Source: Aggregatilineales bacterium (GTDB lineage: Bacteria > Chloroflexota > Anaerolineae > Aggregatilineales > Phototrophicaceae). Taken from it: DNA of 64,000 nucleotides. Location of the stretch: positions 5,766 to 69,765 of the forward strand of contig JBBRTY010000001.1 in the NCBI GenBank assembly GCA_038248285.1, given 5' to 3'. Below, piece by piece: positions 2,846-44,014 of this stretch (positions are counted from its first letter, which is position 1; each line of letters begins with the position of its first letter). Under the pieces are notes generated by a model. It saw only the letters and a list, made by a program, of their open reading frames with translations, was not told the origin of the DNA and searched no databases. The translations under genes and the position numbers were made by a program.

Positions 2846-4525
2846 ATGAGGACAATGCTCAAGCGTGTATTCATCATACTGGGCGTCATGACGATCATCG
2901 GCGTACAAATAGCATCGGCACAAGGGAATGACTCCTGCCAAACGGGAGTCTTGCTATCTTTCGCGCGGACGGCTTCCGCCTGTGCGACTACCGCTTTAGA
3001 TGAAGCCTGTTTTGGCAGTGGGCAAATCAGTGGCATCACGTTCGACGGCGAAAACGCTTTCACGCAACCGGGCGAACAGTTCTCAGTAATGAACCTCCAA
3101 AATATCATCACCACCTCTAGTGACGAGACATGGAGTGTCGCTACTATCTCCTTACGCGCGTCTTTGGATCGCTCGGTGCGTCCTGCCATTACCTTCTTGG
3201 TCTTCGGAAATACTCAACTGACCAATGGCGTCCCGCCCATGCCCGAAATCACCGTGACGACTTCCGGTTCCGCCAATCTTCGCATCGACCCGCAAGAAAA
3301 TAGCGCTATCCTCGCCCAAGTTGGCGTCAATACCACGCTCATCGCCAATGGACGCACGGCAGATCAAGCATGGCTCCGTGTGTTCATCCCCAACATGAAC
3401 GCCATTGGGTGGGTCTCTCGTCAAGCGCTGAGCAATGCCGACCTCACCCCATTGGTGACTATTGACGGTACGCCCTATCTGCACCCGTTCCAAGTCCTCA
3501 ATTTTAGTGCCGATCCCAATACCCCCGCCTGTGATAGCACGCCTCCAAGCGGCATGATCATCCAAACACCCGATGTCACCACGCTGATCACCCTGCGTTT
3601 CCAACCCGATACCACGTTACAGCTAAGCGGCACCGCCTTCATTCAACAGGAAATTCAGGGCGGGTTGACGATTCAAGTTGTGGATGGGGTCGCCACCTTG
3701 CAAAGCGCCAACGCCGATGATCCCGTTCTCGTCCCCGCCGGCGCACGCGCCTCCTTCAATATCCAAACCAATGCCAGTAGCGCCACTTCTATCACTGCCG
3801 CCGAGCCATATACGCTGGAACAAGTGCGCACCCTGCCGATCAATAATCTCCCCTTCCGTTTGCGAGCATTGCCAGAACCCTTGACCTCAGCGGGCATCGC
3901 CGCCTTTATCGCAGATTCCCAACGCGCCCAAAATCCGCCTACTCCCGCCCCTGCCACCCCCGACACCACTTGCCGCCGCGTCGTGACCAGTGATAGTGAT
4001 TTGCGCGCCGGGGCGGGCACATTTTATGAGATCGTCGGTTCCATCCGCAGGGATACTCTTGTCCGCCCCATCATCCGCGCAACCGACCCTGATGGCGTCG
4101 ATTGGTGGCAAGTCGAAGGCAATCGCTGGGTACGCGCATCCGTTGTTGCCGAAACCGGTATCTGCCGCCCTGTGCCAGTTGTCAATAATGCCCCAGCGCC
4201 CACCACCAACACCCTCATCTTGGAAACCTGTTACCCGACCAATGGTCCCCTACGCCCCGGTCAACAAGTCACCTTGGAATTCACCCCGCCATCATGGGAG
4301 ACACGCGCCCAAGCAGAGAACGCCCCCCAAATTGACCCCGGTCGTATCCGCGTAGGATCGACTCGCTTACAGGTCAGGGCAGGGGATGTCCAGCAATTGA
4401 CCGCGAGCGCCTATGTCCGCACCTTTCGGGCAACATGGGCGGCAGAAGTCGGCAACCAAAGAATCACCGGATTTCGTTTAGGCTATACTGTGATTTGTGA
4501 TCTCACCATCGCTGCCGGGGGGTGA
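2846..4525 (+). CDS. Secreted protein with two SH3b-like domains
   Basis: 559-aa ORF with a signal-peptide-like N-terminus MRTMLKRVFIILGVMTIIGVQIASAQG. Two segments resemble bacterial SH3 domains: ANLRIDPQENSAILAQVGVNTTLIANGRTADQAWLRVF..GWVSRQAL and SDLRAGAGTFYEIVGSIRRDTLVRPIIRATDPDGVDWWQVEGNRWVRASVV. A GGGGAG lies about 12 nt upstream of the ATG. Confidence 0.6.
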   Translation: MRTMLKRVFIILGVMTIIGVQIASAQGNDSCQTGVLLSFARTASACATTALDEACFGSGQISGITFDGENAFTQPGEQFSVMNLQNIITTSSDETWSVATISLRASLDRSVRPAITFLVFGNTQLTNGVPPMPEITVTTSGSANLRIDPQENSAILAQVGVNTTLIANGRTADQAWLRVFIPNMNAIGWVSRQALSNADLTPLVTIDGTPYLHPFQVLNFSADPNTPACDSTPPSGMIIQTPDVTTLITLRFQPDTTLQLSGTAFIQQEIQGGLTIQVVDGVATLQSANADDPVLVPAGARASFNIQTNASSATSITAAEPYTLEQVRTLPINNLPFRLRALPEPLTSAGIAAFIADSQRAQNPPTPAPATPDTTCRRVVTSDSDLRAGAGTFYEIVGSIRRDTLVRPIIRATDPDGVDWWQVEGNRWVRASVVAETGICRPVPVVNNAPAPTTNTLILETCYPTNGPLRPGQQVTLEFTPPSWETRAQAENAPQIDPGRIRVGSTRLQVRAGDVQQLTASAYVRTFRATWAAEVGNQRITGFRLGYTVICDLTIAAGG

Positions 4526-4656: not shown

Positions 4657-4935
4657 ATGATTCACCTGAACTCGACCGTTATAGCCACTAATCAGCAACT
4701 TTCGACGGACATGGCAGACGAAACCGTCATCTTAAATATGCAAGACGGTATCTACTATGGATTAGATGAGGTAGGCACATTTATCTGGCAAAACATCCAA
4801 TCCCCGATCTCGGTGACGACCCTGATCCAGCTTTTGCTAGAAGCGTATGCCGTTGATAAAGCTACAGCCGAGCGGGATATCATGAGACTCTTGAACGATC
4901 TTCAGCAAAAACATCTCGTTAACACTATCACTTAA
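4657..4935 (+). CDS. PqqD-family RiPP recognition element (lasso B1-like peptide chaperone)
   Basis: 92 aa. The segment ETVILNMQDGIYYGLDEVGTFIWQNIQSPISVTTLIQLLLEAYAVDKATAERDIMRLLNDLQQKHLV matches the PqqD/RRE pattern (beta-strands followed by a winged-helix part, xxLNxxGxxIWxxl...t..el...l...y.v....a..D...fl..L). It lies immediately upstream of a peptide gene and next to a cyclase-like gene. Confidence 0.8.
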   Translation: MIHLNSTVIATNQQLSTDMADETVILNMQDGIYYGLDEVGTFIWQNIQSPISVTTLIQLLLEAYAVDKATAERDIMRLLNDLQQKHLVNTIT

Positions 4936-5021
4936 AATAGGTTTCACAGATTTTTTATCGAAGTTTAAGGGGAAACCGCATATGCGAAGTAATGAATTTT
5001 GTGAAGGTTTTCTAAAATACC

Positions 5022-5050
5022 GTGACAAAATTCAGGAATGCTAGTATACT
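5022..5050 (+). promoter_or_regulatory. Sigma-70-like promoter for the precursor peptide gene
   Basis: GTGACA (5022-5027), a 17-nt spacer, then TATACT (5045-5050). This is about 65 nt upstream of the ATG at 5115, which itself has a GGAGG 9 nt upstream. Confidence 0.35.
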
Positions 5051-5114
5051 GTCACAAGTGAGCTATCGCGCATGAATTTAACGTGTCGAATGACAATACT
5101 GGAGGATATGACAC

Positions 5115-5432
5115 ATGCAACAAATTGCACAGAAACTCTATGTTTCTCCCAATCTGACCACCTATGGTCGTTTGGAAAACCTGACGTTGATTTGGGACAA
5201 CCCCACCGCGGTGGATAATAACTGCCCTGGGGCTGTCGGCAGCGAAAACCTGAACTCCGGCGCATTTTGCCTATCGGGTAATAGTAATAATGGGGTCGTT
5301 ACACAAGGAACCGGTACCCAAGCAGGTGCAGCCGATACCAGTAGCGCTGGTAGCTCTTCGGTTGGCGAAATCGTCATCCCGCAAATTGTCTTGCCAGAAC
5401 TACCGGCTCAAGAACTTCTGGGCGGCGGCTAG
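5115..5432 (+). CDS. Candidate lasso-type RiPP precursor peptide (25-aa leader plus unusually long 80-aa core/follower)
   Basis: Strong SD (GGAGG, 9-nt spacing). Residues 9-25, YVSPNLTTYGRLENLTL, fit the lasso leader motif Y-x-x-P-x-L-x3-G-x5-T-x with Thr at -2. Next comes IWDNPTAVD, with Asp at core position 9 that could close a 9-residue macrolactam. The remainder is rich in G/S/N/T, has 2 Cys and a Ser-rich patch. Confidence 0.6.
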   Translation: MQQIAQKLYVSPNLTTYGRLENLTLIWDNPTAVDNNCPGAVGSENLNSGAFCLSGNSNNGVVTQGTGTQAGAADTSSAGSSSVGEIVIPQIVLPELPAQELLGGG

Positions 5433-5510
5433 GATTTAATAGTTCCAGCTAACTTACCGTCTGGGACGATACACTTTTTTGAGTTCGTCATTATCCTCCG
5501 GCAAAGACAT

Positions 5511-6485
5511 TTAGCTGTGTCGCATGGCAATCATGTGGCACAGCTTTTTTAGAGTATTGTGCCCTTGTTCTGAAATCAAACTGTACGCGGGAATATGCTT
5601 CACCAGCATACTGATGTCCTGAAATGCGACGGCATCGTTGTAAATAGTTGTGATATGACGGGTATAGACCTCACGCAACAATTTAAACAGGGCATCGCGT
5701 TCGGACATTGGCGTAATCACTATCGCATCGCTCCGCCCCTCTAAGAAATAGATTGCTGCCAATGGCAGTCCCAACGGACTGGCTTGGGCAGTTTTCCACT
5801 CCACAGCGTACTCCCGTTTATCAGCACGATGAGGCGAAACTTCATAAGGCACCATCTCCCCATATAAGGCTTGCGCTGCATCCGCCAACAAGCGAATACG
5901 TGGGGAACCGGGCGGGATCATCACACCCGTATCTGTGAACGTCAAGACGCATAAATCATCCGATAAAATCGGGTACCCCAATTGATCAAAGGCAGCCGCC
6001 AGCGTCGATTTCCCCGATCCGCTTGCCCCCACAAAAGCGACTGCTTGCCCCTCAATCGCAATCACGCTGGCGTGCAATGGGGTGATTCCGCGCAATCGCA
6101 ACACAATCCCCATCATCGGTCCCATCACATTAAATGCCCGCAACGGTTCATCAATGCTGGTCGACCATGACACCCACACGCGCGAACCATCCAACGCAAA
6201 AACGACTGTAATTTGACCTTCATAAGTCAATTCTAAATAGCCACCATCGCGCCATTCACGCAAATATTGCTGCGCAGCATTCGCTGGGGCATCTTCGGTA
6301 ACACGAAACTGGTGGGGGGCAACCCATTCTAGCGAGTCTGCCGCCAATTCAACCGGGATCGCCCCCGAATAAATAGTCACATCAGCCCGCTCACGAATGA
6401 CCGTATGGGTCAATCCGTAAATCGGCGCATTAATCTCAATTTGCAACCCATATAACACATAATCATACCAATCAGGCATGTTCAC
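5511..6485 (-). CDS. HPr-kinase-like P-loop kinase (lasso/RiPP tailoring kinase candidate)
   Basis: 324 aa with Walker A FVGASGSGKSTLAAAF followed by ILSDDLCVL, as in the C-terminal domain of HPr kinase/phosphorylase-related proteins. Sits 21 nt downstream of the cyclase-like gene on the same strand. Confidence 0.7.
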   Translation of the reverse strand: MNMPDWYDYVLYGLQIEINAPIYGLTHTVIRERADVTIYSGAIPVELAADSLEWVAPHQFRVTEDAPANAAQQYLREWRDGGYLELTYEGQITVVFALDGSRVWVSWSTSIDEPLRAFNVMGPMMGIVLRLRGITPLHASVIAIEGQAVAFVGASGSGKSTLAAAFDQLGYPILSDDLCVLTFTDTGVMIPPGSPRIRLLADAAQALYGEMVPYEVSPHRADKREYAVEWKTAQASPLGLPLAAIYFLEGRSDAIVITPMSERDALFKLLREVYTRHITTIYNDAVAFQDISMLVKHIPAYSLISEQGHNTLKKLCHMIAMRHS

Positions 6486-6506
6486 GTCCCTTTAAGCGCA
6501 ATGGCT

Positions 6507-8360
6507 TTAGGTAGATTTCTGATGAAATACTTCCGTCTCAAGCCATAATTCCAATGTCAGCGGGCGCAAATGGACAGCTTGTGAGGCATCAATTTGGGCA
6601 TGAGTTCCAGTCACAGGGGGCACCTTGTCCCGCACAACATACTGCTGCATGAACGCCATTGGTTGCCACGCATCAATCCATTGATTTTCGGGTTTTGCCA
6701 ACAGATACCCTGTGACATCGCCAAATATTTGTTTAGGTCGATGCACCACCGAGTCCGGCAGTATCCCGCTCATCGCCCGTCGCCCCAAATATTTCTTATA
6801 AAACCACGGCAAGGTGGGTAAGCTGGTCAGTAAATCGATGACGCGCAAATCGGCAAACGGATCGACCGTATCGACAGGGGTAAAATCGATGGCATCGCTT
6901 TCATCATGGGCATGAAAATCATAACCGGTATATAACTTTTGCAAATGAGCATTCAACATCAACGGGTTGGTTTTGTTTTTTTCTGCCCAATACCCCTGCC
7001 AGCGCTCCACCAATCCCTGCCGTTGGGCAAAGTCCGGCGCGATCCATGCTGGAAAAGGATAAGTTATTGACTCCGATCTCGCCACGCCACCGCGTGCCGA
7101 CGAAAAAATCCCCGACCCCAACGCCGGTCGTTTACCAAAAAATCGCCCTAACTCGGCATACATCTGGGCGAAGGCGATGGGATTCATCTGTCGGAGCGCC
7201 TGAGCAAGGGGCGCACGACTGGAGAGCGCATCGCCCAAATAGCCAAAAATCGCAACCTTACCGTGTGACGCCATAAAGCGTTGAAAATCCACCCAATTGC
7301 TCGGGGAGAAATTGGAGTGAATCGCATTGGCAATACCGGCATAAGGACGGAAAAACGGCGTTTGTTTCACCTCATAAAACACATGACGATCCTCAAATTG
7401 AAGTTTCGCGGCAATTTCGCGCGCATAGGCTTCTTCAGGATCAATAATCCCGCTGAAAACACTCGTCATCGCGACAGTTTGCGCGCTTACCTCGCCCGTA
7501 CTCACCAAATCAAACGCCAGCGCCGCCGTAGATGAGGAATCCATGCCCCCACTTACGGTGACGAGGACACGATCCGCCCCCATGCGATCTTTAACCGCTT
7601 CTCGCAGCGTGCTGCGATACTGCTCAATAATTTCACCCTCGCGCCGCACCCCCAAAGACAGCCACGCGCGTGCCGAAATATCCTTCATCGGCAACGTCCA
7701 ATAGCGCCGTACACGGTACCCATCGGGCGTCCATGTCAAGGTGTGGGCAGGTTCTAAACGCCGTATATGAAGGAAGGGCGTACTGCTCTTGTCGATCCAA
7801 AACCCTTCCCCTAGCATCAAAAAATCGCCGATATAGCGTTCATCCAAGGTGTCAGCGCTATGGGGGATCATTTTTAGCGGACGAAGTTCATTGCTGAAAG
7901 CAAATACCCCGCCCGCTTGGGTATAATAAAAATCGCGCTTGCCGATTTGATCGCGGGCACAAAACAAAGTTTTGACACGTGCGTCCCAAATGGCAAACGC
8001 AAAGTCGCCGATCAAATGATCGACACACGCCTGACCATAGCGCAAATAGGCGCGCAGAATCAACTCGGCATCTGGTAGCCGTTGATCTGTTTGAAGTTTG
8101 CTGCCTAGCTCCGCCCGCCCGTCAATCCGCGCATCACACACAATCGTGCAATCCGACAAAGTTAACGGTTGACGATGCGGCGCTGGTGCTACGGTCAAAT
8201 TGGCGAGCAAATTGAGCGTGTGAACCAAGCCGACATCAGCATCCTCAAACAATCCTTGACCATCACGCCCGCGATGCGCCAATGCTGTTTGCATCTGATC
8301 AAGCCATGCCCGCCGCGTCGTCACATCATGAAACTGGGTGATACCTGCGAATCCACTCAT
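6507..8360 (-). CDS. Asparagine-synthetase-like protein, probable lasso-peptide macrolactam cyclase (C protein)
   Basis: 617 aa with the PP-loop motif VTVSGGMDSSSTAALA (SGGxDS). The N-terminus MSGFAG has Ser where glutamine-hydrolysing AsnB enzymes have the catalytic Cys2. Size and context fit a lasso cyclase. Confidence 0.75.
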   Translation of the reverse strand: MSGFAGITQFHDVTTRRAWLDQMQTALAHRGRDGQGLFEDADVGLVHTLNLLANLTVAPAPHRQPLTLSDCTIVCDARIDGRAELGSKLQTDQRLPDAELILRAYLRYGQACVDHLIGDFAFAIWDARVKTLFCARDQIGKRDFYYTQAGGVFAFSNELRPLKMIPHSADTLDERYIGDFLMLGEGFWIDKSSTPFLHIRRLEPAHTLTWTPDGYRVRRYWTLPMKDISARAWLSLGVRREGEIIEQYRSTLREAVKDRMGADRVLVTVSGGMDSSSTAALAFDLVSTGEVSAQTVAMTSVFSGIIDPEEAYAREIAAKLQFEDRHVFYEVKQTPFFRPYAGIANAIHSNFSPSNWVDFQRFMASHGKVAIFGYLGDALSSRAPLAQALRQMNPIAFAQMYAELGRFFGKRPALGSGIFSSARGGVARSESITYPFPAWIAPDFAQRQGLVERWQGYWAEKNKTNPLMLNAHLQKLYTGYDFHAHDESDAIDFTPVDTVDPFADLRVIDLLTSLPTLPWFYKKYLGRRAMSGILPDSVVHRPKQIFGDVTGYLLAKPENQWIDAWQPMAFMQQYVVRDKVPPVTGTHAQIDASQAVHLRPLTLELWLETEVFHQKST

Positions 8361-8461: not shown

Positions 8462-10216
8462 ATGGATCTCTCGACATATATTCGCTTAGCGCGAAAATGG
8501 GCGTGGCTGGTTGTACTAGCTGCGTTTATTGCTGGTGGCATTACCTTTATCCTCAATACCGGCACCCCCCCCACGTATCAAGCATCTGTCTTGCTTGCCA
8601 TTGGCAACGCCACAAATTCAGGCAATCCCAACGCCAGCGATATGCAAATAGCGGGGCAATTGGCGGAGAACTATATTCGATTGCTGCGCACCTATGAAGT
8701 TCAACAAAATATTGTCGCTGTTGTGCCCGGCTTAGAAGGTTTCCCTCCAGAATTTTTGGGTAGCATTATCTTTGCTAGCCCATTAGAGGGCACAACCTTT
8801 ATGACCATTACGGTCTCGTATATAGACCCCGTGATGACTGCCGCCATAGCCAATGAAGCCGCTACCCAACTCATCCTCCAAGCGCCGGGGTTAAGCGCTG
8901 GCGAGCAACAACGCCTTCAGTTCGCGAATGAACAGGTCAGCCAACTGACAGTGCAAAACGAAAACCTCCGCACCTTGCTTGATGAAACCAATCAACTCAT
9001 CCAAACCACCACCAATGAAGCAGCGCTCGTCACGCTCAACGAACGACGCACTGCGATCTTGTCCCAATTGGCTCAATTCACCAACACCATTGCCCAGTTT
9101 ACACAACAAAGCAACGACCTCGAACAACGCAGCAATAAGCTAGAAGTAAAAGAAGCGGCACGCATCCCCACCAACGCCCGTACCGTCAATCTCTTCAGCA
9201 CAACTATCGTCGGTGCCCTGATCGGTGCTGCCCTCGCATTGGTTGCAATCATTTCCATTGAATATCTGGATGATGTCATTCGTTCTAGCGAGATTGCCGT
9301 GCAAACCCTCGGCTTACCTGTCTTGGGGGCAATCATGCACATCGGCAAGCGGACGGATAAATACAACGACCGTCTTGTCTACAACTATCCCTCAATGTCC
9401 CCGGTTGCAGAAGGCTATCGCACCTTGCGTACTAACCTCCTGTTCTCGACCGACAATCAAAACAAGGGCGTCTACGTCATCACCAGCCCCAGCCCCGAAG
9501 AAGGCAAAAGCATGACCACCTCCAACCTTGCCATCACGATGGCATTGGCAGGATTGCAAGTGGTCTTGATCGACGCCGACTTGCGTCGTCCTAAATTGCA
9601 CGAGATTTTCCAACTGGAAAACAACGTCGGTTTAACCACGTTGCTCTTTGCAGAACCCGATGTCGTGGAAAATATCAGCGCCGCTGATAGTGATGAAGCA
9701 AAATTGCCAGCGAATCTACGCCAATGTTTGCAAAACACCTCCGTCCCTCGCTTGCGGGTGATCACAAGCGGGTTCATCCCATCCAATCCCACTGAAATCC
9801 TCGGTTCATCGCTGATGCAACGCTGGATCGCAACCTTTCGCAACTCTCCCGGCATCGATATTGTCCTTATCGATAGCCCGCCCACGTTGATGGTTGCCGA
9901 CTCGACCGTGCTGGCTGCCACTGCCAAAGCGGATGTACTGTTGGTCATTGATGCCGGTAAGACACGGCGCGGTGCTGGCATAAAAGCCAAAGAACGCTTC
10001 ACGCAATTGGGCTTGGAGGTCAAAGGGGTCATCCTCAATCGGCTTAACCCCCGTGATGAAACTTACGAGTATACCTATTCCTATGGGTACTATTACACGC
10101 CAACACCCAAAGCCAATCAACGTGGCAAAAACGGAGGCTCACGTCGTGATGCCAAGTCTGTTGAAAAACAGACCGAAGTCAATATAGGCACAACATCCCA
10201 ACCTGACAAAGAGTAG
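8462..10216 (+). CDS. Polysaccharide co-polymerase / tyrosine autokinase (Wzz domain plus CpsD/Wzc-like ATPase)
   Basis: N-terminal TM (WAWLVVLAAFIAGGITFIL), a coiled-coil periplasmic region, then a second TM. Walker A ITSPSPEEGKSMTTSNLA and Walker A' VVLIDADLRRP are present. A C-terminal Tyr cluster reads ETYEYTYSYGYYYT. AGGAG lies 10 nt upstream. Confidence 0.85.
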   Translation: MDLSTYIRLARKWAWLVVLAAFIAGGITFILNTGTPPTYQASVLLAIGNATNSGNPNASDMQIAGQLAENYIRLLRTYEVQQNIVAVVPGLEGFPPEFLGSIIFASPLEGTTFMTITVSYIDPVMTAAIANEAATQLILQAPGLSAGEQQRLQFANEQVSQLTVQNENLRTLLDETNQLIQTTTNEAALVTLNERRTAILSQLAQFTNTIAQFTQQSNDLEQRSNKLEVKEAARIPTNARTVNLFSTTIVGALIGAALALVAIISIEYLDDVIRSSEIAVQTLGLPVLGAIMHIGKRTDKYNDRLVYNYPSMSPVAEGYRTLRTNLLFSTDNQNKGVYVITSPSPEEGKSMTTSNLAITMALAGLQVVLIDADLRRPKLHEIFQLENNVGLTTLLFAEPDVVENISAADSDEAKLPANLRQCLQNTSVPRLRVITSGFIPSNPTEILGSSLMQRWIATFRNSPGIDIVLIDSPPTLMVADSTVLAATAKADVLLVIDAGKTRRGAGIKAKERFTQLGLEVKGVILNRLNPRDETYEYTYSYGYYYTPTPKANQRGKNGGSRRDAKSVEKQTEVNIGTTSQPDKE

Positions 10217-10458
10217 CCGTCATTCTACAGGGTGCGAGAAGGCTTAAGTTTGGAAAATGGTGCTATCCGTTTAATTTGTCCGGATAAATGGATATCTTGT
10301 TTTTCAAAATTTAAGCCTTCTTTTGTATAATGTAAGTGAAATCTGTGGATCTAGGCAATGCCCTAGCCTCACAATACAATAGACAACCTTTGCCATGAGG
10401 TTGTCCCACTGATGCCAAAACGCAGTCTAGTCTGCGCAATGTTATATGAGGACGATGA

Positions 10459-12420
10459 ATGCAAACAACAACCCCACGAGATGATAGGTCGCGGTTAATG
10501 CTTCGGCGTATCACAAGGATTGCCACTGGCGCACTCGTTGATGCCGCTGTGGTAGTCGCAAGCTACCTAATTACCATCGCCCTCCTCACTGTGAGTGATC
10601 CTGATTACGAATCGTTTAACGCTGATTTCGTACTCCTGCTGCTCATTGCCTTGTGCATGGTGGCTTCGTTGTATGCGTTTGGGGTTTATAAGCGCCTTTG
10701 GCATCGCACCAGTGGCTATGGTGTAACCATCATCATCAATGCCGTTGTTGTCGCAACAGTGGCGATCATCTTTGGCATCCTACTGCTTGCCCCCAATGCT
10801 CTGGCTATCCAACTCATTTTAATTGGCAATGGCTTTTCGATGGTGATCTTTGTCGCGCTTCGCTATCGCTCCCGGCTGATCAGCGGTTTAAGCTGGCGTT
10901 GGAATGCCGTCATACGGAGTGAATTCCCGCATTCAACCACGCACGTTTTAATTATCGGCGCAGGCGAATCGGGACAAGTCTTGGCGTTACGGCTCAAGCA
11001 TCGCTATAGAAGTGCCCATAATCGTTATAAAGTTGTCGGCTTCATTGACGATGATTTGAGCAAACAAGGCTTATATGTCGAAAGTTGTCCGATTATCGGT
11101 ACACGCCATGACATCGTAAAGCTTGCAGAAAAACACAAAATTGATTTGATCGTCGTCGCAATCCACAACATTAGCGGTCCCAGCTTTCGCGAAATCCTAA
11201 CTTATTGCGAAAAAACGAAAGCGCTCATCAAAGTTGTGCCTGACCTGCAAGAGATGGTCAACGCGCGACAGACGACCGATGTCCTCCGCGATGTCCAAGC
11301 TGAAGACTTGATCGGGCGCTCACCAGTTACCCGTTATGAGGGCGTAGACTTGTCCCCCGTGACAGAAAAAACCATCCTCATCACTGGTGCCGCCGGTTCT
11401 ATCGGTTCGGAACTCAGCCGCCAAATCATGGCGTATCGTCCCACGAAAGTCGTTATCCTCGACAATAATGAGAGCGGTCTGCACGATCTCTTTATCGAAC
11501 TGCAATCCAAGCATCCAGAGTTAAATATCTTCGCCGCCTTGGTCGATATCACTATTCGCCCGGTGTTACGCACGATCTTCGAAACCCATCAGCCGCAAAT
11601 CGTCTTTCACGCTGCGGCGTATAAGCATGTGCCGATGTTGGAAAACTATCCCCACGAGGCGATCCGTGTCAATGTGGTCGGCACACGTAATCTGGCTGAA
11701 CTTGCCCAAGAATACAATGTTGAACGCTTTGTGTTGATCTCCACCGATAAAGCGGTCAACCCATCCAGCGTGATGGGCGCAAGCAAACGCCTATGCGAGT
11801 TGATACTCCTTGCACTCTCCCAAAACAAGTCGAAAAACACGCGCTTCGCCGCAGTGCGGTTTGGAAACGTCCTCGGCAGCAGGGGCAGTGTGGTGCCCAC
11901 CTTTAATCGTCAGATTGACAGCGGCGGTCCAGTCACGGTGACGCATCAAGAGATGACGCGCTACTTTATGAGCATCCCCGAAGCCGTTAACCTGATTATC
12001 CATGCCGCCTGCATGACCAATGGACACGACATCTATGTCTTACAAATGGGCGAGGTGGTGCGCATTGTCGAACTCGCAGAACGCATGATCCGTCTTCGTG
12101 GGCTACGCCCCTATCAAGATATCGAAATCAAATTTACAGGGATTCGCCCCGGCGAAAAAATGCACGAAGAACTCTTCAACGAGATCGAAAAGCCCGGCGA
12201 AACACAGCACCCCAATATTATGAAAGTGGATAACGATAAAAGCTCAATGATGGTTGATCATTTCTGGTCAAAAATCGACACTTTGATTGAAGAATCTTTT
12301 GCAATGGGCAGCACAGCGCTTCATAAAATGACCGTCATTATTCAGGATGAACCATCGCCATCCTTGAATGGTCATCACGGCGAACCCATTCCGAGTGAAA
12401 TCCAATTCCGTACACCCTGA
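10459..12420 (+). CDS. CapD/PglF/WbpM-like membrane-anchored nucleotide-sugar 4,6-dehydratase/epimerase
   Basis: 653 aa with 4 N-terminal TM helices, a first Rossmann segment LIIGAGESGQ and an SDR motif ILITGAAGSIGSEL. Also FHAAAYKHVPMLE and STDKAVNPSSVMGASKR, typical of the polysaccharide biosynthesis CapD family. Confidence 0.85.
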   Translation: MQTTTPRDDRSRLMLRRITRIATGALVDAAVVVASYLITIALLTVSDPDYESFNADFVLLLLIALCMVASLYAFGVYKRLWHRTSGYGVTIIINAVVVATVAIIFGILLLAPNALAIQLILIGNGFSMVIFVALRYRSRLISGLSWRWNAVIRSEFPHSTTHVLIIGAGESGQVLALRLKHRYRSAHNRYKVVGFIDDDLSKQGLYVESCPIIGTRHDIVKLAEKHKIDLIVVAIHNISGPSFREILTYCEKTKALIKVVPDLQEMVNARQTTDVLRDVQAEDLIGRSPVTRYEGVDLSPVTEKTILITGAAGSIGSELSRQIMAYRPTKVVILDNNESGLHDLFIELQSKHPELNIFAALVDITIRPVLRTIFETHQPQIVFHAAAYKHVPMLENYPHEAIRVNVVGTRNLAELAQEYNVERFVLISTDKAVNPSSVMGASKRLCELILLALSQNKSKNTRFAAVRFGNVLGSRGSVVPTFNRQIDSGGPVTVTHQEMTRYFMSIPEAVNLIIHAACMTNGHDIYVLQMGEVVRIVELAERMIRLRGLRPYQDIEIKFTGIRPGEKMHEELFNEIEKPGETQHPNIMKVDNDKSSMMVDHFWSKIDTLIEESFAMGSTALHKMTVIIQDEPSPSLNGHHGEPIPSEIQFRTP

Positions 12421-12511
12421 TTTCCTAGTGGAGCAAGACGGCGTTGTTCGACTCTACACCACACTCTAAACTTGCGAATTCAATTCCAACAGACTCCTAT
12501 AAGGTTTTGAT

Positions 12512-14602
12512 ATGACTTTCACACCTGATCCACTATCCCCCAATGAGGGTGAACAATTGGCAGTTGTTGATGCCAATTCGCGCTATGTAGAAGCTGAACC
12601 TAGACGGCGTGTTCGGAGACGGCGGCGCAAAGGGGGTATTGTCCGGCAGATTATGAAACGCCTAGGTCTTCGCCGGCAGATCAACGGGGTTTTGATCGCT
12701 ATCGTGAGCCTGGTCGTGATCTCATTGATAGTCTTTATCGCCCTGATCGTAGACTCCTTTACAAAAATCAACGCTTCCATCAATGGCTTAGAACAGGTTT
12801 TGAATGCTGTCCAGAATCGCTCAGGTGCCAATATCTCCCTAAAAGATTTTGAAGATCTTCAATTAGGGGTGATTCAAGTCGGCAATCAATTGGAATTGGC
12901 GCAAAATCGGCTCAATATTATTCGCCCTTTCGCCACCGCCAATCCCGATATTGAACTCACCTTTCGCAGTTTGGACATTGCTCGAAGACTGACCGATGCC
13001 TCCGAAGCCATGTTGAGTGGCTTACAACCCGCTTTGTTTTACCTTGTTGCAGGGGAAGACGAAAACAGCAATTTGACGCAGATTTCGTCGGGCGACCGCC
13101 TTGTTGAACTTTTGGATGTCGGGCGTGAACAATTCCTCAAGGCGCAGGAACAACTCGCCGTAGCCCAAACCCTTTTGGCGGAACTCACTATCGATAACCC
13201 GCCCTTAGAACTCCTGCGCACGACCGAACGGATCATTAGTTTCAACGAGCAACTCACCAGCATCAATGATGTGCTCTTGAACTCCACAGATCTTCTCAAC
13301 GTGGTGTTAGGTCTCAATGGTCAGCGCACCTATTTGATCCTTGCGGTCAATAATGACGAAATTCGCCCATCGGGTGGGTTCCTCAGCACATGGGGGTGGT
13401 TTACTGTTCGCAACGGGCGCATGGTGGATTACGACTACAGTGCTTCGACCCGCACCAGTCCTACCCCGCCCGATACGAGCTTGGCAAACACTTTCAATAT
13501 CCCCTACTGGTGGATTCAATACCGTCAACCTATCTATGCCGCATGGGATGGCAGTTGGAGCGCCGATTTTCCATCTACTGCATCCAGAGCCATGTGGTAT
13601 TACAACGAAGGCGGAAACGAGCACGCCCCGATTGATGGTGTCCTGTCAGTGGATATCACCGCCTTTGAATATATTCTCGGAGTCTTGGGGGAAGTCGAAG
13701 TCGCCAATGAAACGGCGGATGAAGTCGTCACGGCGGCAAATTTCCGCGAAATCGTCTACGACATTCGCGCCTATAGCACCGGCGCAGAACCACACAAAGC
13801 CTTTGTCGCCGCCACCTATGCGGCAATTATGCAAGAATGGCAAACAGCCTCGCGCGATCCAGAACTTAATAGCCGGATTCTTGAAGCCCTGTTGCGCGCT
13901 GTTCAAGAAAAACACATGATGATCTACCTCGCCAACCCACAACTCGATAACGCCATTCAATTGTTAGGGTGGTCTGGCGACCAATATGAAGAAGCAAATA
14001 GCGACTATCTCATGGTTGTGGATAGTAACTTAGGCAATAAATCGAATAGCTCCGTCTTGCGCAACTTGACTTATGATGTCGATATTCAAGCCAACGATGT
14101 ACTCTCCAAACGCCTCACCATCGGCTATGAGTATCCGGCTTCATTGGCGGATCTTGACCCTGCCGTCGATGCTGAATTTCATGGACCGCTGGATTATTCG
14201 ACAATGGTGCAAGTATACGCCCCAGCCAATACCGAACTGGTCAGCAACAGCACCGATATCATGCTGCCGATTGTGGACGCACAAAGTGAACTTTGGTTGG
14301 CATCAACATCTTTCGTCGTTCCCTTCGATGACTCTCGCCGAGTCCAGTTCAGTTATACCTCGCCCAATCTTATCCCTCGTTTTGGGAATTATGGGCGTTA
14401 TAAGTTGTTGATTCAAAAGCAACCGGGGACAATCGGCGATACTGTCACTGTGCAAGTACTTCTACCGCCCAATTCCAAAGTTGTCGAGTCCAATCCAGCA
14501 CCCGTTGCCACTTTTGCCCTTGACCGTCCCATTGTCGAATATCAATTCACCTTGACGGTCGATCAAGAAATCGACCTAATTTTTGAATACAAACCGGATT
14601 AA
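12512..14602 (+). CDS. DUF4012-like membrane-anchored protein of polysaccharide loci
   Basis: 696 aa with a basic N-terminus, one TM (VLIAIVSLVVISLIVFIALIV) and the motif LILAVNNDEIRPSGGFLSTWGWFTVRNGRM, which matches the DUF4012 signature (NNxExRxxGGfxgs.g). Confidence 0.65.
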   Translation: MTFTPDPLSPNEGEQLAVVDANSRYVEAEPRRRVRRRRRKGGIVRQIMKRLGLRRQINGVLIAIVSLVVISLIVFIALIVDSFTKINASINGLEQVLNAVQNRSGANISLKDFEDLQLGVIQVGNQLELAQNRLNIIRPFATANPDIELTFRSLDIARRLTDASEAMLSGLQPALFYLVAGEDENSNLTQISSGDRLVELLDVGREQFLKAQEQLAVAQTLLAELTIDNPPLELLRTTERIISFNEQLTSINDVLLNSTDLLNVVLGLNGQRTYLILAVNNDEIRPSGGFLSTWGWFTVRNGRMVDYDYSASTRTSPTPPDTSLANTFNIPYWWIQYRQPIYAAWDGSWSADFPSTASRAMWYYNEGGNEHAPIDGVLSVDITAFEYILGVLGEVEVANETADEVVTAANFREIVYDIRAYSTGAEPHKAFVAATYAAIMQEWQTASRDPELNSRILEALLRAVQEKHMMIYLANPQLDNAIQLLGWSGDQYEEANSDYLMVVDSNLGNKSNSSVLRNLTYDVDIQANDVLSKRLTIGYEYPASLADLDPAVDAEFHGPLDYSTMVQVYAPANTELVSNSTDIMLPIVDAQSELWLASTSFVVPFDDSRRVQFSYTSPNLIPRFGNYGRYKLLIQKQPGTIGDTVTVQVLLPPNSKVVESNPAPVATFALDRPIVEYQFTLTVDQEIDLIFEYKPD

Positions 14603-14782
14603 CGAACTCAATCCGTCATTCACCTTTTCCAAATAATGCAGCACTGTGATGGACAAAATCATGAAAAGTGCCCATCACAGCGCTCATGGACATCCTAAGA
14701 TTAAGGATATTTTGCGTTAAGTTGGGATAAATTTGGGATAATCAGGGGATATTATCGCAAATCACACTCGAATCGAGGAATT

Positions 14783-15784
14783 ATGAAAGTGCTTGTCACA
14801 GGCGGTGCCGGGTATATCGGCAGCCATATGGTCAATGTCCTACTGGAACGCGGTTATGAAGTGGTCATCTATGATAGCCTCGTCACTGGGCATCGGGAGT
14901 CTGTTCCCGCCCAAGCAACATTGGTAGTCGGCGATCTGCTCGACCCTCAAGCCATCGAACAGTTGTTTAATAGCCATCAATTCGATGGTATCTTCCATTT
15001 TGCGTCCTACATCATTGTGCCCGAAAGTATGCAAAAACCCTTTAAGTATCTACGAGATAATGTCGTCGCTGCCTCCAATCTACTCGAAGCTGCCGCCGCC
15101 CATGGGGTTAAGCGTTTTATATTGTCTTCTACTGCTGCCCTGTTCGATAAACCTCAGCGCATTCCCATTGATGAAAAAGAACCCGTTATCCCCGGTAGCC
15201 CTTATGGGGAAAGTAAAGCGATGATCGAGCGCCTGCTCTACTGGATGGATAAAATTTATGGGCTAAAGTATTGCGCTCTACGCTACTTTAATGCTGCCGG
15301 TGCCCATCCGAACGGACAGATTGGCGAAGATCACGCGCCCGAAAGCCACCTCATCCCGATAGTGCTGCAAGTGGCTTTGGGGCAACGTGACTCGTTAACA
15401 ATTTACGGAGATGATTATTCGACGCCGGACGGTACTGCCGTGCGCGATTATATCCATGTGCTAGACCTTGCCGCTGCCCATATCCTTGCTTTCGAAGCCT
15501 TAGAACATGGCGAAAGCCGTGCCTATAATCTTGGCACCGGCACCGGTTACTCGGTCAAACAAGTGATCGAGTACGCCCGCGAACTGACAGGGCACCCTAT
15601 TCCGGTGGTCTATGGTCCGCGGCGTGGTGGGGATCTAGCAGCATTAGTCGCAGACTCGACCGCGATCAAGCAAGAGCTAGGATGGCAACCTGCCTACCCA
15701 GACCTACGACAAATCATCGAAACGGCGTGGAACTGGCATAGCAACCATCCAGCAGGTTACGCTTCGGCAAACAAACCCGGATAA
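14783..15784 (+). CDS. galE: UDP-glucose 4-epimerase
   Basis: [18 protein letters not shown]-binding motif, the SDR catalytic motif YGESK, and [18 protein letters not shown], typical of GalE. AGGA lies upstream. Confidence 0.9.
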
Positions 15785-16344
15785 GGCAGGTTTGCCGATT
15801 GCGAGCGTTCCAACCATTGCGCCAACGGTTGCGCCTTCGTATCACGTTCCGAAAGCACAGGTTCTTTGACGGGCCAATCAATGCCGATGTCGGGGTCATT
15901 CCACAATACCCCAGACTCGTTGACACCGTTATAGGAGCCTGTGCATAAATATTCCACTTCGGCATAGTCCGACAAAACACAATAACCGCGCGCAAACCCA
16001 GCGGGTGCCCACATCTGCTTGCGATTTTTGTCCGATAGTTTTTCGCCATGCCACTGACCGAGGGTAGGTGAACCTTTACGCACATCAACAGCGACGATGA
16101 AGGCTTCCCCCTGCGACACCCGCATCAGCTTCCCCATCGGCGGTTCCCACTGAAAATGTAATCCTCGCAGCACATTTTTCGCAGAACCCGCTAGATTTAA
16201 CTGCACAAAAGTGGTCGGCAAACCGACTTCCGCGTAAATATCATGGCGATACACTTCCATAAAAAACCCGCGGTGATCGTCAAAGTATTCGTGCGAGAAC
16301 ACTTTGACTGCGCCAAAATACACGCCTTCGACATGGATCTTCAT
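15757..16344 (-). CDS. rfbC: dTDP-4-dehydrorhamnose 3,5-epimerase (cupin)
   Basis: Motifs [47 protein letters not shown] and [11 protein letters not shown] match RmlC. The ORF-track start (16443) adds 33 residues with no counterpart in RmlC, so I place the start at MKIHVEG (16344). Start is uncertain. The stop overlaps the galE 3' end by 28 nt (convergent). Confidence 0.8.
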
Positions 16345-16573
16345 TCGATTAGAAATCTCTTCTGGATAGTTAAAATCAGCCAAAGTGTAGTCGTTTCCCA
16401 ACAGAAAGACAACGCATTGCTTAAAGACTATTTGTTTTTCCAAATCCTGTGCCGATTTCCCCGCGCACTTCTAATTGATAGGATATAATGTCAGGAATCA
16501 TGTCTCAATCCATGTAAAAAATTCCGTTGTAATCGCAGAAACTATGTCGGATTAGTCAATAGAGTATCGAACG

Positions 16574-17131
16574 ATGCAGCAAATCATCACCCACGATCAA
16601 TGCAAGCGTTGTCAAGAATGTTGCCGTTTTCGCGAGAATCGCCAATACTTTGCCCCTGTTTTCACCCCTGATGAGGTCGAAGCAGCGCGTACTGCCGCAC
16701 CCACCGTCAACGCCACCTTCAAACCTGTCGATGGCGATCTGTTTCAGATTCAACTCCAACCCGCCTTATATCCTGATGAAAATTATCAGTATGTCTGTCC
16801 CTTCCTTGATGAAGCTGGCTATGCTTGCACCATCTACGAGGTCCGTCCGTTTGATTGTCGAATCTGGCCCCTGATCATCCTAAAAATCCGTGAGACGGGC
16901 AAGATCATGCTGGCGCATTTTACGGGGGAAGTCTGTCTTGCCATGCGCGAGGTCAGCGAAGCGGAATTGCACACCTACACCACCGAATTCGCTCGCTATG
17001 TGCGCGGTGCTAAATTCATTGAATTTCTAAAACTGCACCCCGGCTTAATCTGGGAACATCATCCAGAAGGTGGCTACATCACGGTTTCCATCGATGACCT
17101 CACCGCGCTGTTTGCCGAGAAAACTTCATGA
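16574..17131 (+). CDS. YkgJ-family Cys-cluster (CxxCxxCC) zinc/iron-binding protein
   Basis: N-terminal CKRCQECC motif plus a later YVCPFL...CTIYEVRPFDCRIWP segment, as in the UPF0153/YkgJ family. Confidence 0.6.
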   Translation: MQQIITHDQCKRCQECCRFRENRQYFAPVFTPDEVEAARTAAPTVNATFKPVDGDLFQIQLQPALYPDENYQYVCPFLDEAGYACTIYEVRPFDCRIWPLIILKIRETGKIMLAHFTGEVCLAMREVSEAELHTYTTEFARYVRGAKFIEFLKLHPGLIWEHHPEGGYITVSIDDLTALFAEKTS

Positions 17132-18453
17132 TTACCAGACTCGCAGAGCGTTTCTTCAAAATCCGCCCCGATGAAATTGGCTTCGTACTCACAATGGGTG
17201 CCATCTTGTTTATGAACGCCCTAACATTGCAGATCACCAATGTGGTGTCGATCAGCGGCTTCCTCAATGAAGTCGGTGCCAATCTATTCATCATTTTGTG
17301 GATAGTCGAAATGATCGTGATCATTGGCACTACGGGGCTTCATAGCTTGATTGTGGACCGTTTTGATCGGCTCTCGCTGCTCAAACTGATCAGCTTGTTT
17401 TTTGCGGGCTTGTATCTCATCTTGACGTTCATGTTTCTGATCGGTTTGCCGGGGTGGTTGAATTATTCCCTGTTGTCACTTTTTGTCGATCAACAACTCT
17501 ACTTCTTCCCGATCATTTATTGGATTCTAGCAAACGACCTCACGCACCCCAGTCGATCAATTCGTCTATTTCCAGTCATCGCCAGCTTCGGCATTATGGG
17601 CGACATCGCCGGTTTAGGCATAAGCGCGGGAGCCCCTGGGGTACTGGCAGGACTGGCACTGCCCAATACCACTCTGCTCATCCTCGTAATCATCGCCTAC
17701 CTCGGCATTTTCGTCGTCTCATCGGGCTTAAACAAAATCCCACGCCGCGAAGTGCAACGGCAACACGAAACCGTTCGCGAAACGCTTAAAGAAGGACGTG
17801 GTTTTGTGCAGGATGTCCCCGCTTTTCGTTATTTGATGTTTTCGCTATTTATTATCGCCGCCGTGATGACAATTATCGAATATCATTTCTTAGCTTTAAG
17901 CGAGTCATCGTATCAGAGTATTGATCAATTTCAGACTTTTTACAGCGTTGTCTTTCTGATCCAAACGATTGTCGCTATCGTCGTTCAGTCCTTGCTGACC
18001 AGCCGCATCATCAATTGGTTAAATCTGAAAAACACATTCCTGCTAATGCCCGCCACTGCCCTATTCGTCACCATCGTTGGCATGATTTTCCCCGGCATTG
18101 TCAGTGCCACCTCAGGCTATTTAATGGCTAAGCTGGTATTGAACGGCATCGATGATACTTCGCGAAAATCATTGCAGGCTTTCGTTCCAGAAGAACGGCG
18201 CGGTCGGGTAAGCTTATTTATGGATAGCTACCTTTATGCCAGCGGCGTTATACTTGGGTCTATCATTCTTGGGTTCACGCTGATTGTCAGCGGGGGTATC
18301 GCGTCATCAACCTATATCATCATCGGCATTCTGCTTTCAGCACTCGCATTGAATTGGATATTACGAATGCGCCGCTCCTATGATGCCAGCTTATTTAACT
18401 GGCGCTTAAAACGTCGTCAACACATGTCCTCCATCCTTGATAAACTGGGCTAG
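17128..18453 (+). CDS. Polytopic membrane protein, MFS/nucleotide-transporter-like
   Basis: 441 aa with about 11-12 hydrophobic helices. The N-terminus RFFKIRPDEIGFVLTMGAILFMN resembles the start of AAA/Npt-type MFS carriers. Overlaps the previous gene by ATGA (translational coupling). Confidence 0.45.
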   Translation: MITRLAERFFKIRPDEIGFVLTMGAILFMNALTLQITNVVSISGFLNEVGANLFIILWIVEMIVIIGTTGLHSLIVDRFDRLSLLKLISLFFAGLYLILTFMFLIGLPGWLNYSLLSLFVDQQLYFFPIIYWILANDLTHPSRSIRLFPVIASFGIMGDIAGLGISAGAPGVLAGLALPNTTLLILVIIAYLGIFVVSSGLNKIPRREVQRQHETVRETLKEGRGFVQDVPAFRYLMFSLFIIAAVMTIIEYHFLALSESSYQSIDQFQTFYSVVFLIQTIVAIVVQSLLTSRIINWLNLKNTFLLMPATALFVTIVGMIFPGIVSATSGYLMAKLVLNGIDDTSRKSLQAFVPEERRGRVSLFMDSYLYASGVILGSIILGFTLIVSGGIASSTYIIIGILLSALALNWILRMRRSYDASLFNWRLKRRQHMSSILDKLG

Positions 18454-18629
18454 TTAAAATAATGAGTTGAAGAGTAAGTAATCGTCCCTAGAAATGTCCT
18501 ACCAGAACGATTTATCACGGAGCGGTTAACTTACCAATGGCACGCTATGCACCTGTTGCATCCGTGATTCGCTAAATTTGTCGTCGTTTCACGATCCCCC
18601 TATTTGGGAATAGTTTGGAGAACTGAAAA

Positions 18630-21115: not shown

Positions 21116-21143
21116 ACCGGATACGTTTAAGGCGTATCCGGTT
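21115..21143. terminator. Hairpin between convergent genes (ATP-grasp + strand / ABC exporter - strand)
   Basis: AACCGGATACG (21115-21125), loop TTTAAGG, then CGTATCCGGTT (21133-21143). The 11-bp stem is perfect and flanked by A/T runs. Confidence 0.4.
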
Positions 21144-21201
21144 CCAAAAACGCTTCAGGGCACGGTCTTTCGTGTCCTCAAAGGAATCTTGCCACCTCTT
21201 A

Positions 21202-23010: not shown

Positions 23011-23014
23011 CCCA

Positions 23015-24862: not shown

Positions 24863-24928
24863 GACAGACCTCACTCCTAAACTTACAATTTGCATTGAGA
24901 GAGTGTGAAGTGTACCCGAAAATCTAAG

Positions 24929-24958
24929 ACCATTACAGACCAATTGGTCTGTAATGGT
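24929..24958. promoter_or_regulatory. Perfect 30-bp palindrome upstream of the ABC exporter genes (operator or hairpin)
   Basis: ACCATTACAGACCAA|TTGGTCTGTAATGGT, perfectly self-complementary, 67-96 nt upstream of the GTG at 24862. On the minus strand it is followed by CTTAGATTTTCGG, so it could also act as an intrinsic terminator or attenuator. Confidence 0.4.
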
Positions 24959-25025
24959 TAATCAAAACATGCGAGTTTTTGGTGAGGGCAATAAACAGGA
25001 ATGGGATTCGACTGACAAGGATTGG

Positions 25026-25055
25026 GCAGGGGTGCCCTTAGGGAAGCACCCCTGC
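25026..25055 (-). terminator. GC-rich hairpin 15 nt downstream of the permuted ATP-grasp gene
   Basis: GCAGGGGTGCCC / GGG..GCACCCCTGC form a stem of about 10-13 bp. There is no clear U-tract, so function (terminator versus processing or stability element) is uncertain. Confidence 0.3.
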
Positions 25056-25069
25056 ATAGTGAAAAAAGC

Positions 25070-26425: not shown

Positions 26426-26437
26426 GAAGGTTCCCTT

Positions 26438-27427: not shown

Positions 27428-27501
27428 GATGCTTCCTTTATCCATAAAGGCGCACAGGCGTACAACCTGTGCGCGCAAGCGCTCAATCGATCAAATAACC
27501 A

Positions 27502-28224: not shown

Positions 28225-28243
28225 GTTGACCTTTGACCTTTGT

Positions 28244-29398: not shown

Positions 29399-29452
29399 GA
29401 CGATACGGTACTCGATGCTGAAGTCTCAGCCATAAAAACCACGAAAACAGAT

Positions 29453-43871: not shown

Positions 43872-44014
43872 CCCCCCCCTTATTATTTTTTCGCATCCGT
43901 GTTAAGTTCATTAAAATTGGCGCGTGATACCTCTGTCTTTAGACATGGGGAGGGATAGCGCCTTTTTCCTTTCAAGTCCTTGATATTTCCAAACGAATGT
44001 ATTACACTTCGGCT

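Follow-up and report, generated by a model that had tools for sequence, protein, structure and literature searches.

Gene content of the cassette and its precursor peptide

Four closely spaced genes were found between positions 4657 and 8360 of the 64-kb stretch of DNA analysed here (the window; contig JBBRTY010000001.1 of an Aggregatilineales bacterium, Chloroflexota). They encode a PqqD-type recognition element (RRE) of the kind found in pathways for peptides that are made on ribosomes and modified after translation (RiPPs), a precursor peptide, an HprK-like kinase and an AsnB-like homologue of lasso-peptide cyclases. The preliminary description of this DNA had presented them as a compact lasso-type cassette with neither a B2 leader peptidase nor an exporter, and all of its open reading frames (ORFs) were recovered at the coordinates given below.

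The RRE gene (4657..4935, plus strand) encodes a lasso B1-like protein of 92 aa. It matched PF05402 with a score above the cutoff (68 bits, E=8e-19), and its top NCBIfam match was lasso_PqqD_Bac with 77.2 bits, just under the cutoff of 80. The nearest solved structures were the lasso B1 proteins 9x90_B (E=1e-12) and TbiB1 (5v1u, E=4.5e-11), in agreement with its first assignment as a PqqD-type RRE. Orthologues with 46-58% identity were present in the related loci L001-L004. The precursor gene (5115..5432, plus strand, 105 aa) is conserved in nine type-1 relatives (types defined below). A promoter and a Shine-Dalgarno sequence of its own had been ascribed to it. A Shine-Dalgarno-like GGAGGA (5101..5106, plus strand) was indeed read 8 nt before the ATG at 5115, whereas the promoter-like site GTGACA-17-TATACT (5022..5050, plus strand) is a 10/12 consensus match, and sites of this class were not enriched over shuffles in the cassette region. 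A terminator-like hairpin with a 15-bp stem and a T-run, also a consensus match (5513..5545, plus strand), lies between the convergent precursor and kinase genes and overlaps the last codons of the kinase gene. No Rfam family matched anywhere in the window.

The kinase gene (5511..6485, minus strand) encodes a P-loop protein of 324 aa with the motif GASGSGKST; an alternative start is the ATG at 6479, as in a 322-aa homologue that is 99% identical (P0128). Matches at the sequence level were weak, with E=1e-11 for HprK_rel_A (44.3 against a cutoff of 200) and E=0.009 for Hpr_kinase_C, and the homologues are annotated with PF07475/PF27840. Scores were likewise below the cutoffs of the SynChlorMet equivalogs, for ScmC (19, cutoff 125) and, among the PqqD-like partners of such kinases, for ScmD (22, cutoff 100). 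In an alignment of 43 sequences, H138, G153, G158, K159, S160 and D177 were invariant; these presumably correspond to the catalytic His, the P-loop Lys-Ser and the catalytic Asp of HPrK/P. The AlphaFold2 model (pLDDT 89, pTM 0.89) matched ATP-dependent phosphoenolpyruvate (PEP) carboxykinases over both domains (E~2e-8), and the catalytic domain of HprK/P and PEP carboxykinase have a common fold. Only this two-domain fold was seen in the model, and no peptidase-like domain was found in it. The protein had been called HPr-kinase-like before; the fold and the intact catalytic residues bear this out, with sequence-model scores below the cutoffs.

The cyclase gene (6507..8360, minus strand) is separated from the kinase gene by 21 nt and encodes 617 aa with a GATase_7 and an Asn_synthase domain. 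In its N-terminus, MSGFAG, Ser2 replaces the glutaminase Cys2, and the VSGGMDSS PP-loop is intact, both as first described. The top NCBIfam match was the lasso model NF033535 (lass_lactam_cya) with 265.6 bits (cutoff 525), compared with 172.8 bits for AsnB (TIGR01536, cutoff 267) and 145 bits for the XrtA amidotransferase (TIGR03108, cutoff 817). AsnB and the amidotransferases of XrtA/PEP-CTERM systems share the GATase_7 and Asn_synthase architecture, the PP-loop and the adjacency to exopolysaccharide (EPS) genes with this protein, but they carry the nucleophilic Cys2, and the lasso model outscores both of theirs.

The closest relatives form, together with the window, a clade of nine loci of two types: the window, L001-L004, L089 and L091 (type 1), and L088 and L090 (type 2). 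More distant loci were taken from among the matches listed in cyclase scans of a genome collection and of metagenomes. The predicted leader of the window peptide comprises aa 1-25 (KLYVSPNLTTYGRLENLTL; 5115..5189, plus strand) and has the layout YxxPxLx3Gx5T-x (Y9-V-S-P12-N-L14...G18...T24-L25). Motif and spacing equal those of the 45-60-aa precursors in B2-containing relatives, for example kkpYSTPALTIYGTVQELTQ followed by the core, and this likeness in sequence and spacing extends to about 90 relatives in PqqD-B2-cyclase-precursor-kinase clusters among the matches listed. Thr was found at position -2 in 96 of the 98 family precursor candidates. The predicted core head (aa 26-52; 5190..5270, plus strand) contains I26, D34, C37 and C52. 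D34 lies exactly 9 residues past the predicted cut and is the predicted ring acceptor; Asp occupies core position 9 in 9/9 type-1, 2/2 type-2 and 60/87 distant precursors.

In the type-1 alignment (A1), Y9, P12, L14, T15, G18, E21, T24, N29, D34, C37, S43, C52, P94 and L96 were invariant, and no conserved Lys or other internal amine was seen in the core. The cores follow the pattern x-[WFYT]-[SDE]-N-...-D9-x-x-C12, with a second Cys about 15 residues on (NSGAFC). Behind it, in the window, lies a C-terminal extension (aa 53-105; 5271..5429, plus strand) made of a G/S/T/A-rich linker and the conserved terminal motif IVLPELPAQELLGGG. Across type 1 the linker is variable and G/S/T/P-rich, and it is followed by [LI]x[LI]VxPxLAxEL[TS]G, an end motif that is common to type 1 and absent from the ~20-aa cores of B2-containing relatives. 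Type-1 precursors are 89-105 aa long, about twice the length in B2-containing relatives. Core and tail together measure 62-80 aa in type 1, whereas the median in distant relatives is 20 aa, and the precursors of the latter end in [KR]-T in 73 of 87 cases. The type-2 cores begin with Cys1 and have Asp9 (CFGAATSHD, CTGGSPFND), resembling class I lasso peptides, and share a conserved GPDSQIC end.

Core position 3 (Asp28 in the window, codon 5196-5198) always precedes an Asn. Five type-1 sequences have Ser there, and four, including the window, have Asp or Glu. By analogy with Ser3-Asn4, the site of the kinase LppK as mapped by experiment in linear polyphosphorylated peptides (LPPs), it may be a phosphorylation site with acidic mimics in some members. 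When the 105-aa peptide was compared exhaustively by phmmer with 1.84 billion representative proteins, only five true relatives were returned, so the long-precursor family appears rare and narrow; a metagenome scan with the precursor alignment gave no match. Two apparent multi-core precursors, P0248 (5975 aa, 49 matching stretches) and P0254 (672 aa, 4 stretches), were rejected as repeat-protein artefacts.

Related loci and the missing B2 protease

The nearest cyclase homologues, with 41-52% identity, came from metagenome-assembled genomes (MAGs) of Anaerolineae/Chloroflexi and from metagenomes. The flanks of the relatives' loci were viewed to ±10 kb, and flanks of at least 5 kb on both sides were counted as full. 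The syntenic loci L001-L004 and L091 encode precursors of 94-100 aa, and no B2 was present within ±10 kb of them. In the orientation of the window, the type-1 order is beta-propeller gene (minus strand), SH3 protein, PqqD, precursor, kinase (minus strand), cyclase (minus strand), Wzc-like kinase, CapD, DUF4012, GalE and RmlC; L089 has this synteny without PqqD. The type-2 cassettes (L088, L090) consist of cyclase, kinase and a convergent precursor of 55-61 aa, with neither PqqD nor B2. One Anaerolineae MAG, GCA_016789005.1, holds both a type-2 (L090) and a type-1 cassette (L091), only one of them with an RRE. Altogether the RRE is retained in 6/9 clade loci (the window, L001-L004 and L091). 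Given these recurrences, the arrangement of the cassette is no product of chance.

Homologues with 30-37% identity were found in Acidobacteriota, Cyanobacteria, Deltaproteobacteria and others; the matches listed in the genome-collection scan were distant relatives with 30-35% identity. The genes of such homologues are usually arranged PqqD-B2-cyclase-precursor(s)-kinase, and in many cases genes for a PrmA-like methyltransferase, an ABC transporter and NTP_transf_5 come next. These clusters, of Acidobacteriota, Cyanobacteria and others, are the closest to the window outside its clade among the matches listed. They are uncharacterised, and their cyclases lie near NF033535. They share the leader motif and its spacing, Asp9, the kinase and a Ser2 cyclase with the window, but have cores of about 20 aa and often carry the PrmA-like and NTP_transf_5 genes, both absent in the clade of the window. 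Among the matches listed, B2 was present in 55/61 distant loci with full flanks (47/53 in the genome set and 8/8 in the metagenome set), compared with 0/7 full-flank loci and 0/9 loci overall in the clade of the window. A metagenome scan with the clade cyclase alignment yielded no new clade members among the matches listed and at least 8 full-flank distant loci, all with B2.

B2 was also absent within about 10 kb in the distant loci L022, L042, L047, L054, L060 and L075 (full flanks) and L014, L039, L048 and L084 (shorter flanks), some of them on megabase contigs. The absence of B2 from the locus thus recurs in several independent lineages of the kinase-associated family (6/61 full-flank loci among the matches listed).

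In a neighbour-joining tree of 100 homologues, in which a Cys2 EPS-type AsnB (L006, 922-2745) fell outside the family as outgroup, the B2-less Anaerolineae cyclases of types 1 and 2 formed one clade, whose sister is L087, a locus arranged ABC-PqqD-B2-cyclase-kinase. The 617-aa protein nests with lasso-type cyclases of PqqD-B2-cyclase-precursor clusters and not with AsnB or exosortase-associated amidotransferases, the point on which the preliminary description had made its lasso reading depend. All of the full-length family cyclases with a displayed N-terminus start with Met-Ser-Gly, save three with irregular extracted ORF starts, and the length and motifs of the window cyclase are the same as in its canonical relatives. 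Far from being a one-off, the lack of B2 is a trait that a monophyletic Anaerolineae lineage has conserved; the loss of B2 is ancestral to the clade, which then diversified and duplicated. The cassette ORFs are intact in nine loci despite cyclase identities down to 41-52%, and this conservation together with the duplication in one MAG argues for function.

The same data bear on the idea that the locus encodes no RiPP at all: the small ORF would be spurious and would happen to adjoin an amidotransferase and a kinase associated with EPS, or the cassette would be a decaying remnant. The direct contact of the cassette with Wzc, CapD, GalE and RmlC genes and family-model scores that all fall under the trusted cutoffs would fit this idea. 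We consider it very improbable, given that the catalytic Cys2 is missing, that the lasso cyclase model scores better than the AsnB and XrtA models, that the nearest solved relatives of the RRE are lasso B1 proteins, that a small ORF with a lasso leader is conserved in every relative, and that the ORFs remain intact in nine loci at about 50% divergence.

A B2 gene near the cassette was searched for in three ways. The B2 proteins of three related clusters gave no tblastn match in the 64-kb window, nor, even at E<10, did a local hidden Markov model (HMM) built from about 67 B2 sequences. The window has 49 non-overlapping ORFs of at least 100 aa; 48 of these and the 92-aa PqqD ORF were scanned with Pfam, and PF13471 (B2) was absent from all of them. 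The remaining ORF, GalE-like (14783-15784), was covered by the tblastn and HMM searches. These results rule out a B2 hidden near the cassette. Fusion of B2 or of another protease domain to the RRE, the cyclase or the kinase was ruled out as well, as the lengths equal those in B2-containing relatives, homology is full-length and the kinase model shows two domains only. Signal peptidases of the S26/SpI type gave no Pfam match in the scanned window ORFs and were absent from the precomputed annotations of the relatives' loci. An S8 subtilase (28244-29398) in the window and a retropepsin-like gene of L088 are not shared between loci, and no conserved peptidase gene accompanying the clade cassettes was found.

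Taken together, we think it probable that the four genes form a functional, kinase-associated (paeninodin-like) lasso-type RiPP cassette of an Anaerolineae lineage whose B2 gene has left the locus. The leader peptidase is most likely encoded outside the cassette, as a B2 acting in trans or as a protease of another class. Several observations speak against this explanation. The absence of B2, first noticed for the cassette itself, extends over the 64 kb of the window and to within about 10 kb in all eight syntenic or paralogous relatives, so that a B2 just outside the equivalent cassettes, which would have made this an ordinary split cluster, was not found up to that distance. Three loci (L088, L090 and L089) also lack the RRE, which a canonical pathway should need, and the RRE and cyclase scores lie under the NCBIfam trusted cutoffs. 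Core position 1 is Ile, Leu, Phe, Val or Thr and not the usual Gly, Ala, Ser or Cys, and a core plus tail of 62-80 aa exceeds by far that of any characterised lasso peptide known to us. Finally, the window peptide ends in ...QELLGGG, without a terminal Ser or Thr. The C-terminal Ser acceptor of the paeninodin style is therefore missing, and of the paeninodin-type role first proposed for the kinase, the enzyme is present and its expected acceptor is not. Relatives end in GSGGS, GSSGS, SSGE or STSGGG, with a terminal Ser in only some.

It is quite possible that a canonical B2 (PF13471) encoded elsewhere in the genome, perhaps belonging to another lasso cluster, serves the cassette in trans by standard biochemistry. 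Thr(-2), the known B2 recognition residue (PMC10368454), is strictly conserved, and the B1 RRE, which is known to hand the leader to B2, is kept in six of the nine clade loci. That one MAG combines an RRE-less type-2 cassette and the RRE of a type-1 cassette suggests that components are already shared in trans. Outside the clade, L073 has two clusters on one contig with a single B2, and B2 is displaced within L035, L077, L082 and L086. Um et al. 2026 reportedly describe a lasso system encoded by a 'split biosynthetic operon'. Such sharing would nevertheless have to account for the contrast between none of the nine clade loci and 55/61 distant loci, for the lack of B2 across the whole window and for two paralogous cassettes in one MAG that both lack it. 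In addition, a homology search with the L087 B2, itself a weak search, gave only 7 matches, none of them from Chloroflexi.

A pathway independent of B2, in which a dedicated or housekeeping protease of another class removes the leader in the manner of the SpI-type LppS of the LPP family, seems unlikely. The long C-terminal extension and the kinase may in that case belong to an altered logic, for example one in which phosphorylation licenses cleavage. The LPP family offers a precedent: an RRE-guided, non-B2 leader peptidase has been shown experimentally, and leader cleavage needs prior phosphorylation by LppK at core Ser3, within the site Ser3-Asn4 (PMC13381572). In keeping with this, core position 3 of type 1 is Ser, Asp or Glu in all sequences except one and is followed by an invariant Asn4, the precursor length is LPP-like, the loss of B2 is ancestral to a whole clade that diversified and duplicated, and the RRE too is dispensable in some members. 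However, no peptidase gene is conserved with the cassettes: S26/SpI enzymes are absent from the scanned window ORFs and the relatives' annotations, and neither the subtilase nor the retropepsin-like gene is common to the loci. A broader proposal goes along the same lines, namely a lasso-type lineage that is truly B2-free and sometimes RRE-free. An unrecognised peptidase or LPP-like, phosphorylation-licensed cleavage would free the core, and the cyclase would then form the head, a lasso or a macrolactam, of a peptide of ~70-80 aa with a long tail that bears the conserved motif. This product would act on the cell surface along with the EPS machinery. We regard this lasso-LPP hybrid as doubtful, although conceivable.

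The leader could also be kept altogether, with the cyclase repurposed as a ligase that joins Asp34 to a side chain, to an EPS amino sugar or to another protein, or amidates it, giving a linear or branched product of ~100 aa. The absence of B2, and in some loci of the RRE, would agree with such a reaction, as would the precursors, which are double the normal length and share a C-terminal motif, and the constant adjacency to EPS genes and secreted SH3/beta-propeller proteins. It is improbable, however, in view of the exact Thr(-2)...Asp(+9) spacing in 11/11 clade precursors, a core without a conserved Lys or other internal amine, a cyclase whose length and motifs are unchanged with respect to canonical relatives, and type-2 cores that look like class I lasso cores. 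Compared with a B2 in trans and with another protease, a leader-retaining ligase is the least likely of the three, given the conserved spacing and the unchanged enzyme architecture.

Genomic surroundings

Next to the cyclase gene, and divergent from it, lies the Wzc-like gene of an EPS locus (8462..16443) that encodes, by domain matches, a Wzc-like tyrosine autokinase, a CapD-like dehydratase, DUF4012, GalE and RmlC. These neighbours recur in L001-L004 and L089. EPS markers (Wzc-like tyrosine kinase, CapD, glycosyltransferase, Bac_transf) were present at most 10 kb from the cyclase in 31/92 family loci, in Chloroflexota, Acidobacteriota and others. On the other side lies the gene of a secreted SH3_3-domain protein of 559 aa (2846..4525, plus strand; SH3_3 E=2e-8), co-directional with the RRE and precursor genes. 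It is syntenic at all type-1 loci, and orthologues with 35-46% identity stand beside the cassette in L001-L004 and L089. Both cassette types adjoin secreted SH3_3 and beta-propeller (PD40/Tricorn-like) proteins. A single duplicated module of SH3 and beta-propeller neighbours was considered and rejected, as the neighbours of the two types show generic SH3 similarity only and no detectable orthology. The seemingly ORF-free region at about 1-2800 of the window is explained by a beta-propeller gene of ~1,250-1,290 aa that runs off the left end.

The absence of an exporter from the cassette, also noted at the outset, was borne out: the nearest ABC pair (21202-24943), which comprises the only ABC exporters, lies 13 kb away. 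It is unlikely to be the missing exporter, since its identity to cluster-linked ABC exporters is generic (32-34%) and it is part of an operon-like run that also includes ATP-grasp and S8 genes. No NTP_transf_5 was found in the window or in the clade loci.

The run that contains this pair extends over 19766-30667, mostly on the minus strand. By domain matches it comprises up to four ATP-grasp-type ligases (29453-30667; 25070-26425, CP_ATPgrasp_2; and two weak ones, 26438-27478 and 19766-21115), the S8 subtilase mentioned above, an esterase-like hydrolase (27502-28332) and the two ABC exporters, which are of the MsbA type. This run may constitute another system that modifies and exports a peptide. 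Four genes (16574-21115, plus strand) separate RmlC from the ABC pair: one encodes a CxxCxxCC-domain protein, two have a weak HAMP match at best, and one has weak ATP-grasp matches. They appear to be a lineage-specific insertion, because they are absent at this place in L001-L003, where RmlC abuts the ABC genes. Elsewhere in the window, a 308-aa ORF (43997-44923, plus strand) has a Cas12f1-like/TnpB TNB domain (E=9e-20) and probably encodes all or part of a transposon-associated nuclease of the TnpB type.

Proposed pathway and relation to known systems

Of the components, homology establishes the RRE, the leader motif, a P-loop kinase whose catalytic residues are intact, and an AsnB-type adenylating enzyme unable to use glutamine. 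In the proposed pathway, the PqqD RRE would bind the Y9xxP12xL14 motif in the leader of the 105-aa precursor, as homology suggests. The HprK-like kinase would then use ATP to phosphorylate Ser or Thr on the still-linear precursor, by analogy with PadeK, PsmK and LppK; PadeK, ThcoK and PsmK phosphorylate the C-terminal Ser of their linear precursors (PMC9266682). Candidate acceptors here are the Ser/Thr-rich tail and core position 3. The leader would be cut after Thr24-Leu25 by the peptidase from outside the cassette, be it a B2 encoded elsewhere in the genome or an enzyme of another class. The distance between Thr(-2) and Asp(+9) is fixed in all 11 clade precursors and would be meaningful only with a new N-terminus at the leader-core junction; this spacing is the strongest argument for cleavage there. 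The Cys-less AsnB-like enzyme would adenylate Asp34 (core Asp9) and close a 9-residue macrolactam onto the new amine of Ile26. A lasso cyclase has been reported to make its product from the free core without leader or B protein (PMC6993621). A Cys37-Cys52 disulfide may lock the tail in a class IV-like manner, and, if no trimming takes place, the tail of the product would measure ~50 aa, an unusual length. A role at the cell surface or in biofilms, suggested by the constant position beside the EPS locus, is speculative.

Judged by the features that mark a lasso biosynthetic gene cluster, the window has the YxxPxL leader with Thr(-2) and core Asp9, the PqqD RRE and the Cys-less AsnB-like cyclase, and lacks B2 (PF13471) in the cluster. 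The discrete PqqD RRE, the AsnB-like cyclase and an HprK-like kinase acting on the linear precursor are shared with the paeninodin/pseudomycoidin type of Bacillota (PadeK, ThcoK, PsmK), whose clusters, like the window, are often co-located with polysaccharide loci (PMC9266682; PMC13381572). That type, however, has B2 and usually an NTP transferase and an ABC exporter, none of which is in the window cassette; its short precursors end in the acceptor Ser, whereas the window peptide of 105 aa ends in GGG, and its leader has W in the xxP motif where the window has Y.

With the LPP family the window shares an RRE with an HprK-like kinase, a YxxP leader, long precursors (35-200 aa in LPP) with variable C-terminal parts, no requirement for B2, the embedding in capsule or EPS loci and a possible parallel at the Ser3-Asn4 phospho-site (PMC13381572). 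Still, it is no LPP cluster, as it has a cyclase and SpI is absent from the scanned window ORFs. Among lasso classes, class IV (pandonodin, LP2006) and class I share with the window the 9-residue ring on Asp9 that is predicted here. Class IV has two tail Cys for a tail-tail disulfide, as type 1 does, with the topology here being inferred, and class I has Cys1...Asp9, as the type-2 paralogues do (PMC13352647). The tails of both classes measure less than 20 aa, against ~70 aa here. The literature searched contained no description of B2-less kinase-associated lasso cassettes, nor of lasso-type precursors of ~100 aa. What is new here is therefore the B2-less, kinase-associated lasso cassette with precursors of ~100 aa; the kinase-associated type of lasso pathway was already known.

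To our knowledge, no lasso pathway characterised so far does without the cysteine protease B2, and the common genome-mining rules we know of require it; B2-less cassettes have probably been overlooked because of these rules. Should a B2 be found elsewhere in these genomes, the system would come down to a split cluster of unusual layout whose precursor is atypically long. A conserved and duplicated B2-less lineage offers a test of whether a B2 in trans or another protease can provide leader removal, and of the tolerance of lasso cyclases for very long substrates. Furthermore, the association of kinase-type lasso and LPP systems with EPS or capsule loci, reported before only in Bacillota (PMC13381572), is extended to Chloroflexota and Acidobacteriota. 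The position beside EPS genes points to a physiological, surface-related role and not to an antibiotic.

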